Position numbers and translations under genes: made by a program. A DNA stretch of 28,017 bases from a virus: the UHGV virus genome UHGV-0120697. One strand, written 5' to 3'. Below the pieces are notes generated by a model that was not told the origin of the DNA, ran no database searches, and saw only the letters and a program-made list of their open reading frames with translations. This document shows positions 5,001 through 10,932 of this stretch, one piece after another. How positions within the stretch are numbered: the stretch's first letter is position 1; the number at the start of each line of letters is the position of its first letter.

Positions 5001-5204
5001 ATGAACAACAAGACATGGTTTCGTGCATATGCATGGGCGCTGGTATGCGTCCTCGTCTCTCTCATTCTGTATGTAGGGGTACTCCCCCGAATGATTTCAT
5101 CAGACAGCTCCTTCCTGGTATTGTTGGGCATTTTCATTGCCATGCTGTACCCGGCAGGCGTTGTTCGCCTTTTCAGTAAGTACATCAAGGAAATTAAACA
5201 ATGA
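5001..5204 (+). CDS. Small membrane protein, two predicted TM helices (67 aa)
   Basis: Internal ATG at 5001 with an AAGGG RBS after the previous stop; two hydrophobic segments; ATGA-coupled to the downstream SPFH gene. Confidence 0.5.
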   Translation: MNNKTWFRAYAWALVCVLVSLILYVGVLPRMISSDSSFLVLLGIFIAMLYPAGVVRLFSKYIKEIKQ

Positions 5205-6031
5205 AGAAATTCAGACTCTTTCAGATTCTCCCGCTTTTTGCCGCCATCCTGCTGGTTGGCTGCGATCGCGTTGAGCCAGGTAATATGGGCATCAAAGTCA
5301 ACAAGCTGGGCGACGACAAAGGCGTTGGCGAAGTGGTTGGCGTTGGTCGCTACTGGACTGGCTGGAATACCGAGGTTTACATCTTCCCGACCTTCAAACA
5401 AATGAAGACCTACGATGAGCCGTTCAGCTTTCAGATGAGTGACGGCACAACCATCGGCTATCACATCGGCGTGGCCTACAAAGTTGATCCATCCAAAGTT
5501 ACCACGGTGTTTCAGACCTACCGCAAAGGCGTGGACGACATTACCGACACTGACCTGCGCCAGAAGATCGCCGATGCACTCAACCGACTGGCCAGCAAAA
5601 TGACCACCGATAAGTTTATCGACGGTGGTAAGTCTGAACTGCTGGATTCAGCACTTAAAGATATTCAGGAAGAGATGACCCCCATCGGTATTCAGGTCAT
5701 GAGCCTCTCTTATGTCGGTAAACCGGAATATCCGCCAACCGTTATCGACAGCATTAACGCCAAAGTCACGGCAAACCAGAAAACCCTGCAACGTGAACAG
5801 GAAGTCAAGCAACGCGAAGCTGAAGCCAACATGCTGCGCGCAGAAGCTGCCGGACAAGCCGATGCCATTCGCACAAAAGCCCAGGCTGAAGCCGACGCCA
5901 TTCGTTTACGCGGCGAAGCTCTGCGCCAGAATCCCGGCGTTATGGAGCTGGAAGCGATTAACAAATGGAACGGCACGCTACCGCAATACATGACCAGTAA
6001 CACCGCTGTTCCGTTTGTTCCGGTGAAGTAA
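5201..6031 (+). CDS. SPFH/band-7 (HflK/C-, prohibitin-like) domain lipoprotein
   Basis: Signal peptide with lipobox LLVGC; SPFH-like core followed by an Ala/Glu/Gln/Arg-rich coiled coil (EAEANMLRAEAAGQADAIRTKAQAEADAIRLRGEA) and a WNGTLP tail typical of band-7 proteins. Confidence 0.7.
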   Translation: MKKFRLFQILPLFAAILLVGCDRVEPGNMGIKVNKLGDDKGVGEVVGVGRYWTGWNTEVYIFPTFKQMKTYDEPFSFQMSDGTTIGYHIGVAYKVDPSKVTTVFQTYRKGVDDITDTDLRQKIADALNRLASKMTTDKFIDGGKSELLDSALKDIQEEMTPIGIQVMSLSYVGKPEYPPTVIDSINAKVTANQKTLQREQEVKQREAEANMLRAEAAGQADAIRTKAQAEADAIRLRGEALRQNPGVMELEAINKWNGTLPQYMTSNTAVPFVPVK

Positions 6032-6037
6032 TTAAAC

Positions 6038-6081
6038 CCGGCCAGTGAAAACCGCTGGCCGGAGCAGTATCAGGATTTTTT
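6038..6081 (+). terminator. Hairpin (CCGGCCAG/CTGGCCGG) with a distal T-run after the SPFH gene; weak terminator candidate
   Basis: 8-bp GC-rich stem read directly; the T-run is 14 nt downstream, so not canonical. Confidence 0.3.
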
Positions 6082-6198
6082 AGTATGCCGTTCTCACAAA
6101 AAAACCGCTTGCCATGCCGCAATCAGTCAGGTTACATTTCCGCTGCACCTCATAAAACGGGTGCCGGGATTGGAACCCCGCTGACTATGCACGCGCAC

Positions 6199-6220
6199 AA
6201 CCGCGCCAGCGGTTTTTTTG
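6199..6220 (+). terminator. Intrinsic terminator-like hairpin AACCGC-GCCA-GCGGTT followed by T7
   Basis: Stem-loop plus U-tract read directly, inside a roughly 340-bp region with no convincing ORF. Confidence 0.4.
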
Positions 6221-6274
6221 TGCGTACCGTATCGCCACGTCTTTTTCGCGTCAGAATTATGGTGGGGCGTATGG

Positions 6275-6371
6275 GGCCGACTTCGGTCGGGCCGGATTCG
6301 TGCGTAGCCGGTAGTTCCAACCCTGTACGTCTCACCACCCCGAGCTTGGAACCTCTGGATGGTGAGTTTTT
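6275..6371 (+). ncRNA. Candidate structured RNA: UUCG-tetraloop hairpin (6275-6293), helix GTTCCAA/TTGGAAC (6314-6320 with 6346-6352) crossing helix CTCACCA/TGGTGAG (6331-6337 with 6360-6366), then T5
   Basis: Complementarities read directly. ORFs on both strands here translate to low-complexity, non-protein-like sequence. Function unknown. Confidence 0.3.
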
Positions 6372-6398
6372 AAAACTTACTACGTACGAGGCCACCCC

Positions 6399-6629
6399 AT
6401 GGCAAACCGCAAACAACAGCGCGCATACGCTGCGCGTCGTCACATCCAGACTGAAATCAACCGCAGACTTTTCCGCGCATTCCGCGTCGCGCATATCATG
6501 CACATCAATATGCTGCATGAGCGCAGCCACGCACTATCAAACATCTATTCCGCCGCTGTTTTCAGCTATCTGGCGGATGATCTGCGCGAGCTTCAACAGC
6601 TCATCCAGCAGCAAAACAAACTCCATTAA
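6399..6629 (+). CDS. Hypothetical small basic protein
   Basis: ORF with a GAGG RBS directly after the structured non-coding region; weak support. Confidence 0.35.
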   Translation: MANRKQQRAYAARRHIQTEINRRLFRAFRVAHIMHINMLHERSHALSNIYSAAVFSYLADDLRELQQLIQQQNKLH

Positions 6630-6701
6630 TTCCTGTTCCGGGCCTTTCCTGCACCTTGCGGCGGGAGGCCTTCGCACATCTGTAACAAGAGGATTGCCGC
6701 A

Positions 6702-7067
6702 ATGATTCTCGCCAACGACTTTCTTGAATACCTGCTCAACACAGAACGTGATCTTGCCGCTCGCGTGCGTGATCGTTATGACATGTACCTGAAATCCCTG
6801 CCTGTACCGCAGCTCGCTGACGGAAAGATTGTTATTGATGGTCGCTACATGATTGACAGCCACGAGGGAAATTACAGGCTTTACCGCATTGAAGGTGGCA
6901 CCCCGTCCGTTATTGGCATTTACCAGCGCCCATCCTCTGCAATCGTCGATGTGATTGCCGACAGCATCCGCATCACACATCGCCATGCCGACACAGAAGA
7001 CACCGTGCTGGAAATTCAGCGGCTGGCTACAGTCTGCCGCGACACCCTGAATGGCATGACGAAGTAA
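6702..7067 (+). CDS. Hypothetical protein immediately upstream of the replication gene
   Basis: ORF in the operon orientation; ends 7 nt before the A start. Confidence 0.5.
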   Translation: MILANDFLEYLLNTERDLAARVRDRYDMYLKSLPVPQLADGKIVIDGRYMIDSHEGNYRLYRIEGGTPSVIGIYQRPSSAIVDVIADSIRITHRHADTEDTVLEIQRLATVCRDTLNGMTK

Positions 7068-7073
7068 ATCACT

Positions 7074-9896
7074 ATGACGGCAGAGTACATCAGGGACTGG
7101 CAACAACCGCGCCACGCAGTAGGACGTGAAGGAACGGAGATCCCCGCACCTGAATCCGCACTTTCCTCCTGGCTGGATGCCTACCGGGCAGAGAACGAAC
7201 GCCGCCAGGAAATGGCTGATGCGGCGTTCTCCGCCACACCGCTGGGCAACCTGATTAATAAAAGCCTGGACGCACAGGAAAAACAGGACAAAACCATCAC
7301 ACTGGCAGGAGACGCCAGAAAACGGGCACGCGGCGCGGTGGATGAAGCCATGGCCTCGCTGCGCCTGCTGCCGTCCTATCTGCGCGATCCGCTTATTCGC
7401 CACCTCTCCTTCCTGCGCAAAAAACAGGAAGCCGATCGCCGGAAAGGCAAAAAGAGCTGGCAGGCGGAACGCTATGCACGCGGAACCCTGCGCAAAATAT
7501 TCGAACGTCTGGATCGCACTGACAGACGCTGGCTGACACCGGGTTATCGCTCCCTTGCCGGACGCGAACGCCTGGACGATTTGCTTTACCTGCCGCAGCT
7601 CAACAAACACCAGATACAGACGCTGGCCACCATGACGGCGGCGATGTTCAGCAGCACCTTCGAAAAACTCTGCGATGGCTTTGGCGCGACTGATGGCGAA
7701 CTGACCATGGATGTAACGCTGAAGGCGTATCAGATGCTGGCCCGCATGGCGTTACACCTGCACGCCATGCCTCCACATTATGACGCACTGACAACAGACA
7801 AAGACCGGAGGAACGAACCGGACACGGAGCTGCTGCCGGGCGCAATCCTCCGCCTGACCTGTGCGGAATGGTGGAAACGCAAACTGTGGCTGTTACGTTG
7901 CGAGTGGAGAGAAGAACAACTCCGCGCCGCCTGTCTGGTTTCCAGAAAAACATCGCCCTATCTGAGCCAGGACGCGTTAAGCGAGTTTCGCGCACAGCGC
8001 GAGAAAACACGCGATTTCCTGAAAAGTTTCATGCTGGAAAATGAAGACGGGTTCACGATTGATCTCGAGACGGTGTATTACGCGGGAGTAAGTAACCCGG
8101 TTCACCGTAAGGCAGAAATGATGGCCACCATGAAGGGACTGGAACTTCTGGCCGAAGCCCGTAGCGACAGAGCGGTGTTTCTGACCGTCACCTGCCCGTC
8201 AAAATACCACGCAACAACGGAGAACGGTCATCCGAACCCCAAATGGAACGGGGCCACCATGCGCGACTCCAGCGATTACCTGGTTAACACGTTTTTTGCG
8301 GCAGTCCGCAAAAAACTGAACCGCGACGGCCTGCGCTGGTATGGCATCCGCACGGTGGAGCCTCACCATGACGGCACCGTGCACTGGCATATGATGGTCT
8401 TTGCTCATCCGGAAGAAATCGACAGCATCGTGGCCATCACCCGCGATATTGCCATTCAGGAAGATCGTCACGAACTGGGCGATGATATTACTCCGCGCTT
8501 TAAGGCGGAGTATGTCGACGGCTCAAAAGGCACACCAACCAGCTATATCGCGACCTACATCGGAAAAAACCTGGACAGCCGCGCCGTAGATGGCATCGAC
8601 CCGAAAACGGGCAAGCCACGCGTTGACCACGAAACCGGAAAATCAATGGCCGAGAGCGTGGAGCGCGCCATTGGCTGGGCGCGTCTTCATCGGGTCCGCC
8701 AGTTCCAGTTCTTTGGCATCCCCTCCCGTCAGGTATGGCGTGAACTCCGCCGCCTTGCCAGCCAGATGGCACGCAACCCGGAAGGCCCGCAACGGCTGAA
8801 GGATGATGCAATGGATGCGGTACTCGCTGCCGCTGATGCCGGGTGTTTTGCCTCCTACATTGAAAAACAGGGTGGCGTGCTTGTTCCACGCAAGGACTAC
8901 CTGATTCGCACCGCCTACGACCTCGCAGATGAGCTGAACGATTACGGCGAACAGAGCGTACAGATTTACGGGATCTGGTCACCACTCATCGGGGAATCCT
9001 CCCGTGTGTGCACGCATCCGGATAACTGGAAGTTGGTAAGACGTAAACCAGAACCAGAAGACAACGCCCGCGAAAATGGTTTTGACCTTCAGGGCGGCCA
9101 TGCCGCCCCTTGGACTCGTGGCAATAACTGTCCCCGTGTACAGGAAACGGACAACAACGGGACAGAACAGCCGGAAGAACGGCCAGCACCGTGGCCGCAG
9201 CTTCCTGACGGCGTTGACGTGAACGAATGGATGCGCTCACTGAAACGGCACGAACGCCGGGCGCTGATGCGTTCGCTTCGTGACAAACAGGCAAAAAACA
9301 GCAGTGATGAAATGCAGAGCTGGACACAGAGCCGCAAACAGCAGCGGCCTTTGCCTGATAACCACGAATTACTCGCTAAAGAATGGCGGGAATCTGCCGA
9401 ATCTCTCGGCCTGCATATCGGTGAACAGCAGATGCAGCACCTGTTACGGGGCGGCAGTCTGTACGTTGACGGCAGCATCATTGCACCGCAGGGATTTGAA
9501 ATTGTACGCAAACCGGATACCCGACCGGACAGCCGGATCACGCAGCTCTGGCAGCGCCTGAGCCGTAACCACGGCGTAAGCAGTACGGAGATCCGCCATA
9601 ACCCGGTCGCCAGCTATCTGGAACAGCTGAGGGCATCAGACCCCGAAGCCGCCGCACGCCTGGCATCCACACTTCAGCAAGACCAGAACACCATGAAAAC
9701 ACCCGTTACCGTGCTTTCTGACATGCTGCGCGCCATCCGCGACGCAGAGCACGCACAGAGAATCAGTGAAACCACTGAACGCGCCCGCCGCAAAGCAGAC
9801 CTGCTGCGGGGTGGCCTGACCAGTGGAAACAAAAAACAGACAGAAACGGGATTCACAAATCCCGTAAATGAGCAAAAAACGCGCCGCGATATATGA
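7074..9896 (+). CDS. A: Rolling-circle replication initiator, gpA family (HUH endonuclease)
   Basis: HUH motif (TVHWHMMVFAH) and paired active-site tyrosines (TSYIATYIGKN); position after the early operon as in P2. 940 aa, longer than P2 gpA (about 760 aa), with a C-terminal extension. Confidence 0.9.
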   Translation: MTAEYIRDWQQPRHAVGREGTEIPAPESALSSWLDAYRAENERRQEMADAAFSATPLGNLINKSLDAQEKQDKTITLAGDARKRARGAVDEAMASLRLLPSYLRDPLIRHLSFLRKKQEADRRKGKKSWQAERYARGTLRKIFERLDRTDRRWLTPGYRSLAGRERLDDLLYLPQLNKHQIQTLATMTAAMFSSTFEKLCDGFGATDGELTMDVTLKAYQMLARMALHLHAMPPHYDALTTDKDRRNEPDTELLPGAILRLTCAEWWKRKLWLLRCEWREEQLRAACLVSRKTSPYLSQDALSEFRAQREKTRDFLKSFMLENEDGFTIDLETVYYAGVSNPVHRKAEMMATMKGLELLAEARSDRAVFLTVTCPSKYHATTENGHPNPKWNGATMRDSSDYLVNTFFAAVRKKLNRDGLRWYGIRTVEPHHDGTVHWHMMVFAHPEEIDSIVAITRDIAIQEDRHELGDDITPRFKAEYVDGSKGTPTSYIATYIGKNLDSRAVDGIDPKTGKPRVDHETGKSMAESVERAIGWARLHRVRQFQFFGIPSRQVWRELRRLASQMARNPEGPQRLKDDAMDAVLAAADAGCFASYIEKQGGVLVPRKDYLIRTAYDLADELNDYGEQSVQIYGIWSPLIGESSRVCTHPDNWKLVRRKPEPEDNARENGFDLQGGHAAPWTRGNNCPRVQETDNNGTEQPEERPAPWPQLPDGVDVNEWMRSLKRHERRALMRSLRDKQAKNSSDEMQSWTQSRKQQRPLPDNHELLAKEWRESAESLGLHIGEQQMQHLLRGGSLYVDGSIIAPQGFEIVRKPDTRPDSRITQLWQRLSRNHGVSSTEIRHNPVASYLEQLRASDPEAAARLASTLQQDQNTMKTPVTVLSDMLRAIRDAEHAQRISETTERARRKADLLRGGLTSGNKKQTETGFTNPVNEQKTRRDI
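9846..9865. promoter_or_regulatory. 20-bp palindrome ACGGGATT-CACA-AATCCCGT (copy 1, inside the 3' end of A)
   Basis: Perfect 8-bp inverted arms; an identical-arm copy lies 73 bp downstream. Confidence 0.5.
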
Positions 9897-9972: not shown

Positions 9973-10932
9973 ATGAAAATTTGTATCGATGACGGCTCCA
10001 CCAACATCAAGCTGGCATGGACTGAGAACGGCGAACGCCGCAACGCCATCAGCCCGAACAGCTTCAAGTCGGAATGGTCTGCGCCGTTCGGTGGCACGCA
10101 GCCCGCGAACTACATGCTTGATGGCGTGCGCTATGGTTTTGATCCGGTCAGCGATCGCTTTGTCCAGACGACTGACACGCAATACCAGTACAGCGATGTG
10201 AATGTCATTGCCATTCATCACGCGCTGGTCAAATCAGGCATCACGCCACAGGAGGTGGATGTGGTTGTCACCCTGCCACTGAGCGAGTATTTCGACACAA
10301 ACGCACAGCCGGACATAGCCAACATCAACCGCAAAAAAGCGAACGTTATGCGCCCGGTGGAGTACCAGAACGGCGAAGCATTCACTATCCGTAACGTACG
10401 GGTTATGCCTGAATCCATTCCGGCTGGCTTTAAGGCACTGGCTGACATGAGTCCGTTTGAATCCCTGCTGATTGTGGATTTAGGCGGAACCACGCTGGAT
10501 GTGGCAAAGGTTCAGGGACAACTGGCAGGTATCAGCCAGGTGTTTTGCGATCCACACGTAGGCGTTTCCCTGATGGCCGATGCCGTACTGTCGGTGATGG
10601 CCACTAACGGTATGCGTACCAGTCACCACATCGCCAATACCATTATCGAACATCGCCATGATGAAGCCTGGCTGCGCCAGCACATCCACAATGACGCGCA
10701 TTACGCCAGCCTGATGGCGGTTATTCGTGAAAAGGAAGAAACACTGAAACAACGCGTGATCCGCGCGCTGGCGGGTTTTTCGGGTTACGGGCGGGTGATG
10801 GTTGTCGGTGGCGGGGCAGAGATTGTGGCACCCGCTATCCGCGAAGCCTGCGGAGTTAATGCGACTTTCATCGCGGACGGGGTGCCACAGTTTGCTCTGG
10901 TTAATGGGCTGTACGCAATGGGCAAGGAGTAA
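9973..10932 (+). CDS. parM: Actin-like segregation ATPase, ParM/StbA family
   Basis: Actin-fold motifs: phosphate-1 (IDDGSTNIKLAW), phosphate-2 (VDLGGTTLD), adenosine (VVGGGAEIVAP). N-terminus closely resembles plasmid R1 ParM as recalled from memory (not searched). Confidence 0.7.
   Translation: MKICIDDGSTNIKLAWTENGERRNAISPNSFKSEWSAPFGGTQPANYMLDGVRYGFDPVSDRFVQTTDTQYQYSDVNVIAIHHALVKSGITPQEVDVVVTLPLSEYFDTNAQPDIANINRKKANVMRPVEYQNGEAFTIRNVRVMPESIPAGFKALADMSPFESLLIVDLGGTTLDVAKVQGQLAGISQVFCDPHVGVSLMADAVLSVMATNGMRTSHHIANTIIEHRHDEAWLRQHIHNDAHYASLMAVIREKEETLKQRVIRALAGFSGYGRVMVVGGGAEIVAPAIREACGVNATFIADGVPQFALVNGLYAMGKE

Follow-up and report, generated by a model that had tools for sequence, protein, structure and literature searches.

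Two predicted regulatory RNAs of known phage families, arranged as in P4, precede an anti-repressor-like gene and the gene for replication in a P88-like prophage

The immunity region of the satellite P4 is ordered PLE, seqA/t1, cI RNA (seqB), seqC/t4, eta/kil, epsilon, orf151 and alpha. The immI region of P1 and P7 consists of c4, icd and ant and, in P1, the C4 RNA forms a second layer of immunity beside the protein repressor and controls an anti-repressor-type gene. Regarding the Salmonella prophage Gifsy-1 (isrK, STnc1160/orf45, anrP), IsrK and STnc1160 are stable RNAs made from one promoter, STnc1160 being a processed downstream RNA complementary to IsrK, and IsrK, a structural homologue of the P4 SeqA RNA, acts in trans on the read-through mRNA (Hershko-Shalev et al., PMC4825925, where the C4/CI-type immunity of P4 is also summarised). 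Here we describe positions 6038-6398 of the UHGV virus genome UHGV-0120697 (28,017 nucleotides (nt), called here the window), which an earlier note, made from the letters alone, had proposed as a candidate small RNA locus.

The whole window is a P88-like prophage of E. coli (Xuanwuvirus, P2-like), and over bases 5900-7100 it shares 95.7% identity with Escherichia phage P88 (Peduoviridae, Xuanwuvirus). Judging from sequence, region 6038-6398 contains two known phage regulatory RNAs, IsrK and C4; their arrangement is that of P4, and an anti-repressor-like gene and a replication gene follow them. We consider it very probable that the region provides an RNA-based second immunity control of this P88-like, P2-type prophage, with the build of the P4 left-operon leader and the logic of P1 immI. 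Most of this biology has already been seen in P4, P1 and Gifsy-1.

The two RNAs and their targets

A Rfam scan of the whole window at the curated (gathering) thresholds returned exactly two matches, both within 6038-6398. The isrK family (RF01394), whose gathering score is 50, reached 67.4 bits over model positions 1-77 and with an E value of 1e-12 for the whole window, and the C4 family (RF01695) scored 79.8 bits against 45, full length over model positions 1-87 and with an E value of 2e-14 on the same basis. The earlier note had suggested such a scan and had named one or two small RNAs as a possibility; two RNA genes were found. The c4-a1b1 model (RF03163) stayed below its threshold in the window (19 bits versus 46.7) over the bases covered by the isrK model, as it did for P4 itself (44.1 bits), and a tRNA/tmRNA scan gave no match. 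The elements of the region are the following, lengths being in nt or base pairs (bp) and ORF standing for open reading frame.

6109-6138, plus strand: sigma-70-like promoter TTGCCA-18-TACATT, 9/12 consensus, ending 7 nt before the isrK match
6145-6219, plus strand: IsrK/SeqA-type RNA
6145-6164, plus strand: IsrK hairpin 1
6165-6180, plus strand: IsrK hairpin 2, with an 8-nt loop
6170-6176, plus strand: b1, UUGGAAC, in the loop of IsrK hairpin 2
6185-6193, plus strand: a1, CUAUGCACG, single-stranded, between IsrK hairpin 2 and the terminator
6199-6214, plus strand: IsrK terminator stem (6 bp), with U7 to 6219; equivalent to P4 t1
6255-6342, plus strand: C4/CI-type antisense RNA
6260-6276 with 6321-6337, plus strand: C4 closing stem, 17 bp
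6277-6290, plus strand: C4 hairpin 1, CCGAC-UUCG-GUCGG, with a UUCG loop
6291-6312, plus strand: C4 hairpin 2, whose 12-nt loop carries a'
6297-6307, plus strand: a', core CGUGCGUAG at 6299-6307, pairing extendable to 6297
6314-6320, plus strand: b', GUUCCAA, single-stranded joiner of C4
6331-6337 (CUCACCA) with 6360-6366 (UGGUGAG) and inner pairs, plus strand: alternative hairpin; whole element 6331-6371
6346-6352, plus strand: b2, UUGGAAC, in the 8-nt loop of the 6331-6366 hairpin
6380-6390, plus strand: a2, CUACGUACGAG, overlapping the Shine-Dalgarno sequence GAGG (6388-6391) of ORF76

The predicted transcription start lies at about 6145, and the promoter motif is unchanged across six phages (the window and five close relatives). 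The isrK sequence forms three hairpins, the last of which is an intrinsic terminator, as in the family, and the terminator noticed earlier at 6199-6220 is this element. The minimum free energy (MFE) fold of C4 is the Rfam structure (-43 kcal/mol, z score -3.0; z score of the core -4.1), and, of the traits that go with release by RNase P, C4 shows an acceptor-stem-like closing helix and, at its 3' end, the conserved tail CCACCC. The UUCG hairpin that had been placed at 6275-6293 is present as C4 hairpin 1, but the true helix is 6277-6290, the outer G/C bases belonging to the closing stem and to hairpin 2.

P4 matches both families as well, isrK with 60.8 bits and C4 with 74.9 bits, in the same order and orientation. 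It carries a promoter-like TTGCCT-18-TATAGT motif of the same geometry, which we take to be PLE, 6-7 nt upstream of the isrK match, and an equivalent terminator. In both elements the antisense RNA has two segments with upstream and downstream targets, a2 lies on the ribosome-binding site of the first gene, and the hairpin that presents b2 uses the 3' strand of the closing stem. The P4 order of promoter, seqA with terminator, antisense RNA, seqC and first gene is found in the window. The window element is, however, a full P2-like phage whereas P4 is a satellite, its specificity sequences are distinct from those of all sampled P4-like loci, and its C4 and first gene are about 56 nt apart, epsilon being about 245 nt from C4 in P4. 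The locus resembles immI of P1 and P7 in its C4 family RNA and in the placing of a1/b1 upstream and a2/b2 downstream of a'/b'; it differs in that the upstream targets lie in a separate, terminated isrK-type RNA and in that the cargo is an epsilon-type protein and a replication gene instead of icd/ant. It shares the isrK family with Gifsy-1 and is predicted to share two other traits of that prophage: an anti-repressor cargo, and a single promoter that gives both a short terminated RNA and a longer, read-through one including a complementary C4-like RNA (PMC4825925). Gifsy-1 differs in being a lambdoid prophage with a Rha/Ant-type anti-repressor that feeds into an anti-terminator.

The a' segment is complementary to a1 in IsrK and to a2 downstream, and b' to b1 in IsrK and to b2 downstream. 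Each pairing of the window's a' with a target includes one G.U, and the b-target 7-mer is present at b1 and b2 only in the 28-kb window. The Shine-Dalgarno sequence of ORF76 sits 7 nt before the AUG at 6399, and the a2 pairing reaches into its GAG. The exact helix reported earlier between 6314-6320 and 6346-6352 is the b'/b2 pairing; the pseudoknot or alternative structure proposed with it is better read as this antisense-target pairing plus an alternative hairpin, one having a strand in common with the C4 closing stem. A further exact copy of a1 within gpA (CTATGCACG, window 7472-7480) was considered as a fourth a-type target and rejected: it is identical in P88, whose a' differs, and for lack of covariation it is probably due to chance.

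In a close set consisting of the window and the five close phages (mean identity 93%), almost all differences fall within six short blocks that change in concert. The b1/b'/b2 blocks read UUGGAAC/GUUCCAA/UUGGAAC in the window and in phiSM, UUUCCAC/GUGGAAA/UUUCCAC in P88 and UUCGCAG/CUGCGAA/UUCGCAG in the P88_4B11 group, while a1/a'/a2 occur in four distinct matched versions, P88 having a' CUGUAGUUG with b' GUGGAAA. The b blocks of phiSM, not its a blocks, are common with those of the window.

A viral contig collection scanned for the C4 core yielded 120 loci, 105 of them distinct and with enough flank for analysis. The spacing is constant in these 105 loci, the distances from the end of C4 hairpin 2 being about +33 for b2, about +65 for a2 and about +85 for the start codon. 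Pairs were counted column by column in 25 distinct P88-type loci (alignment A2). This count replaced a cruder test of the longest run of complementarity (G.U allowed), which split own from foreign loci well at the a sites and poorly at the 7-nt b sites. The four pairings gave the following values.

a1 with a': 7 of 9 pairs doubly changed, 99.1% of cells paired
b1 with b': 5 of 7 pairs doubly changed, 99.4% of cells paired
a' with a2: 6 of 11 pairs doubly changed, 94.9% of cells paired
b' with b2: 5 of 7 pairs doubly changed, 100% of cells paired

When the partners were slid by 1-3 columns as a control, 31-47% were paired. The C4 stems are 100% paired across the same loci, and two pairs of the closing stem are changed on both sides. 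Covariation across related prophages, which the earlier note had put forward as a check, is thus present, with 5-7 doubly changed pairs for each a or b pairing, and outside the six blocks the 25 loci hardly vary. The 11 a' types and 7 b' types occur in 16 combinations, one a' type being seen with three b' types, and so the a and b specificity determinants reassort. The a' type of the window is unique among the 25 loci. In the sample as a whole, no complete a' plus b' specificity was common to different classes (P88-like, P4-like and Rha-like).

Two further observations concern specificity. The b' of P88 (GUGGAAA), when reverse-complemented, is exactly the b' UUUCCAC found in four other loci (L010, L041, L056 and L090; some Rha-like or P4-like loci); therefore, the antisense segment of one element is the target of another, and cross-talk or role swapping between elements is possible. 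One contig (L062) carries two C4 cores of different a'/b' specificities about 870 nt apart (7050-7082 and 7920-7951), each followed by a Rha-like ORF, which points to tandem RNA-immunity modules.

Regarding the alternative hairpin, its 5' arm and the 3' strand of the C4 closing stem are one and the same sequence, which makes the two structures mutually exclusive. It is predicted at -16.2 kcal/mol (z score -2.9), with b2 in its loop and U5 (6367-6371) after it. The exact pairing of 6331-6337 with 6360-6366 pointed out earlier is the stem of this hairpin. About 95% of the 105 loci keep the hairpin, and no fewer than 12 versions of its arms occur among them, such as CUCACCA/UGGUGAG, GCUAUCGCC/GGCGAUAGC in P4, AGCUGCCAC/GUGGCAGCU and GCCCGCC/GGCGGGC; at the family level, the hairpin therefore covaries. 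The U5 tract noted earlier is indeed there but is specific to this variant, and the family as a whole does not have a second intrinsic terminator. A conserved intrinsic terminator at this place was ruled out, the U tract being absent in most relatives, and since the 3' tail is usually not U-rich the hairpin is not a general intrinsic terminator. The P4 terminator t4 between cI and timm is Rho-independent, atypical in structure and needed for immunity; the b2 hairpin of P4, which has the same position downstream of cI as the window's hairpin has downstream of C4, lies at the right place and is a candidate for t4.

The operon and the frame through the RNA genes

The isrK and C4 RNAs are the leader of the operon ORF76-ORF121-gpA, in line with the regulatory leader for the replication module that the earlier note had named as a possibility. 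The frames of this part of the window are listed below, lengths of proteins being in amino acids (aa).

6399-6629, plus strand: ORF76, first gene under the predicted C4 control, distantly homologous to P4 epsilon, which is a helper derepression protein
6702-7067, plus strand: ORF121, phrog_3237, whose start overlaps the stop of the eta-like ORF
7074-9896, plus strand: gpA, replication initiator (P2-type nicking endonuclease), 940 aa, Pfam Phage_GPA with 432.8 bits; last gene of the operon
6085-6705, plus strand: eta-like ORF of 206 codons, crossing both RNA genes and overlapping ORF76 in another frame
6150-6530, minus strand: ORF of 126 aa

ORF76 is annotated as 'derepression protein' in relatives. 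It is 29% identical to P4 epsilon by BLASTP (E value 1e-7), and a hhalign comparison of the small ORF76 family with the small epsilon family gave 94.8% probability and an E value of 5e-8; P4 epsilon itself scores 170 bits on Pfam Derepression (PF25738). The variation in ORF76 is highest at third codon positions (102 versus 70 and 58), and it is therefore a genuine protein-coding gene. A comparison of ORF76 with solved structures gave no meaningful match, and NCBIfam gave no name for ORF76, ORF121 or gpA. The repressor of the prophage is a homologue of P2 C (PDB 2XCJ/2L49, E value 1.7e-14), and P2 C belongs to the protein class that epsilon inactivates. Compared with P4, the first gene after a2 is here the epsilon homologue, in another frame than the eta-like ORF and without a kil nested in frame; the replication gene is a P2-type gpA instead of the alpha primase-helicase, and ORF121 is unrelated to P4 ORF151, no similarity having been found between the two.

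The region had been described as poor in ORFs. This did not hold, as the 206-aa and 126-aa frames span it and the plus-strand frame is open in relatives. The ATG of the eta-like ORF lies upstream of the RNA promoter, an in-frame ATG being kept even with a different upstream gene, and the stop of the ORF overlaps the ORF121 start (ATGA, 6702-6705). The translation matches Pfam Phage_ASH (PF10554) with 33.2 bits over aa 17-110, the codons of which cover both RNA genes. Here again P4 is similar, with a long ORF in the same frame through the RNAs, matching Phage_ASH, and epsilon downstream. The P4 eta frame (8168-8812 on the minus strand of locus L007), which runs from upstream of PLE through seqA, cI and seqC, scores 82 bits on Phage_ASH across the seqA-cI-seqC span; P4 epsilon matches PF25738 only, not Phage_ASH. 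In 26/27 P88-like, 29/29 P4-like and 25/25 Rha-like loci, that is, in 80 of the 81 loci of the three main classes, the corresponding frame is open on both sides of the C4 core, at least from -100 to +90; the other two frames are open in 0-3. Over 6145-6398 the eta-like frame has no codon-position bias (57/58/54), and where it overlaps ORF76 its codon position 2 varies most. On this codon-position evidence, 'Ash' as a conventional protein was rejected. On the simplest reading, translation would itself be the purpose of the frame, as in the case of P4 eta, rather than the making of a folded protein.

A survey of P4-like satellites took PF10554 as the 'epsilon' profile (PMC8628076). Phage_ASH also matches P88-like phages, and the 'Ash' frame is kept open in lambdoid Rha-type loci. 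Because it matches the translation of an RNA leader, also beyond P4-like elements, PF10554 is neither an epsilon nor a P4-specific marker, a point which bears on surveys that use Phage_ASH as a marker of P4.

Proposed circuit and other explanations

The steps of the circuit proposed below are carried over from P4, P1 and Gifsy-1, the locus itself contributing the parts, their order, the structures and the covarying complementarities. In a lysogen, the output of the promoter would mostly be the 75-nt IsrK-type RNA, which stops at the IsrK terminator. The read-through precursor would be processed, RNase P cutting its 5' end, and C4 would be released. C4 would then pair in trans with b2, as a loop contact, and with a2, at the ribosome-binding site, blocking the translation of ORF76; termination or polarity on the untranslated RNA would leave ORF76, ORF121 and gpA silent. 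Pairing of C4 with a1/b1 on nascent RNA might strengthen termination at the IsrK terminator and amount to C4 autoregulation, and free IsrK might titrate C4 and switch the operon on, as in Gifsy-1. During lytic growth, early-operon transcripts would be translated via the eta-like ORF, and the ribosomes would push through the RNA structures, forestall the shut-off that depends on immunity and go on, by coupling, into ORF121 and A. The specificity of immunity would lie in the a and b blocks. P88 is inducible by mitomycin (PMC5285337).

Several points weigh against this circuit. We infer the transcription start, the processing sites and the action in trans at this locus. The isrK fold by itself is not exceptionally stable (z score -1.4), and its helices are conserved yet show no covariation in the close set. 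No U tract is conserved after the b2 hairpin, where relatives read UUUUC, CUAUU or UAUCC. ORF76 scores barely above the cut-off on PF25738 (27.4 bits versus 27) and is only a candidate anti-repressor. A LexA-box scan gave 11 matches versus 9.2 expected, none near the promoter, and revealed neither an SOS box nor another input signal nearby. Finally, in one P88-like locus (L017, IMGVR_UViG_2547132417_000016) b1 reads UUCUCAC and mismatches its own b'; the b' GUGGAAA and b2 UUUCCAC of that locus are mutually matched. This is the sole clear break of the three-way rule and may represent a recombinant upstream target.

The predicted MFE structure of the full leader (6145-6410; -110 kcal/mol, z score -3.8) pairs a1/b1 with a'/b' in cis and forms the b2 hairpin, and it can be read in two other ways. 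The Gifsy-1 logic might dominate, IsrK being the main effector or activator that opens a silent read-through mRNA and free C4 repressor being secondary or absent. The short IsrK RNA of Gifsy-1 turns on the translation of the read-through transcript in trans (PMC4825925). The leader fold of the window resembles the inactive 'structure A' of Gifsy-1, and its isrK match is full length, with a promoter-like site and a terminator of its own. Such a dominance of IsrK nevertheless leaves unexplained both the covariation of a2/b2 with a'/b', which is as tight as that of a1/b1, and the compensatory changes in the 17-bp C4 closing stem; moreover, in P4 and P1 the immunity factor is the C4/CI RNA. We judge it unlikely, while noting that it is not exclusive of a C4 repressor and that its logic probably operates within the same circuit. 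The cis pairing would also suit a leader acting purely in cis, in which no small RNA diffuses and the three-way complementarity provides alternative folds that decide termination and translation; the alternative hairpin 6331-6366, which shares a strand of the closing stem and is conserved family-wide, speaks in the same direction. However, the strong terminator at 6199-6219 would free a separate 75-nt RNA, the characterised members of the RNA families matched above threshold are separate trans-acting RNAs, and hypervariable, reassorting specificity blocks are what immunity in trans predicts, whereas a switch in cis needs no differences between phages. Only a slim chance is left to this explanation.

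Least probable of all, to a degree that makes it hardly credible, is that the region is simply protein-coding, the RefSeq 'Ash family protein', and that its RNA-like structures are incidental. The 206-codon ORF does span the region, match Phage_ASH, remain open in relatives and overlap the next start with its stop, and RefSeq annotates it so in matching complete E. coli genomes. Against this stand the absence of codon-position bias over 6145-6398 and the excess of variation at position 2 in the ORF76 overlap, and the sequence changes sit in blocks that preserve RNA-RNA complementarity, not amino acids.

The RNA-based second immunity control that we favour can be placed in a wider picture, which we offer tentatively and hold to be somewhat doubtful in its full extent. 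P88-like phages might possess a two-tier immunity of the P1 type, in which a P2 C-type repressor is joined by a C4 RNA gating the phage's own epsilon-type anti-repressor and gene A. Their module might be the helper counterpart, and possibly the evolutionary source, of the P4 immunity-epsilon cassette; the hypervariable a and b blocks, which reassort independently (at least 11 x 7 types), might serve as an RNA barcode of heteroimmunity, and the b2 hairpin as the point of decision between repressor RNA and read-through.

Setting and distribution

The locus is flanked upstream by an SPFH/Band_7 accessory gene (5201-6031) and downstream by ORF76, ORF121 and gpA. The SPFH insertion is missing from several otherwise collinear phages, and in phages without it the homology to the window starts only at about 6095; the conserved module therefore begins just upstream of the 6109-6138 promoter. 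One further feature lies in between.

6038-6062, plus strand: perfect 10-bp hairpin, CCGGCCAGUG/CGCUGGCCGG, 7 nt past the SPFH stop, with no U tract

The segment folds at -22.8 kcal/mol (z score -3.6). This hairpin marks where the SPFH insertion ends on its 3' side, and it has only a peripheral place with respect to the RNA module.

When bases 6095-6400 were compared with 5426 complete RefSeq genomes of E. coli, matches covering at least 80% of the query were found in 1152 (about a fifth), at up to four places per genome, 47 of the places being on plasmids. Identity is only 80-90% for most of the matches, in keeping with a large number of specificity variants, and the exact variant of the window occurs in five genomes. 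In the 15 RefSeq records among the matches listed, the matching stretch carried no ncRNA feature and no annotation other than 'ash family protein', 'derepression protein' or 'hypothetical protein', and a literature search found no paper discussing these RNAs in P88-like phages. The present analysis would thus give a function to a stretch that RefSeq labels only 'ash family protein' or 'derepression protein'. It would also extend RNA immunity of the P4/P1 type to P2-like phages of the helper class, directly upstream of the replication gene, and the natural matched a and b triplets make up a ready panel of orthogonal antisense-target pairs.

Further downstream, the window carries a 319-aa ORF (9973-10932) homologous to bases 8856-10131 of P88 (locus L001). 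In P88, gpA is directly followed by two genes annotated as a ParM-type plasmid segregation protein and a partition protein, an uncommon cargo for a P2-like phage.

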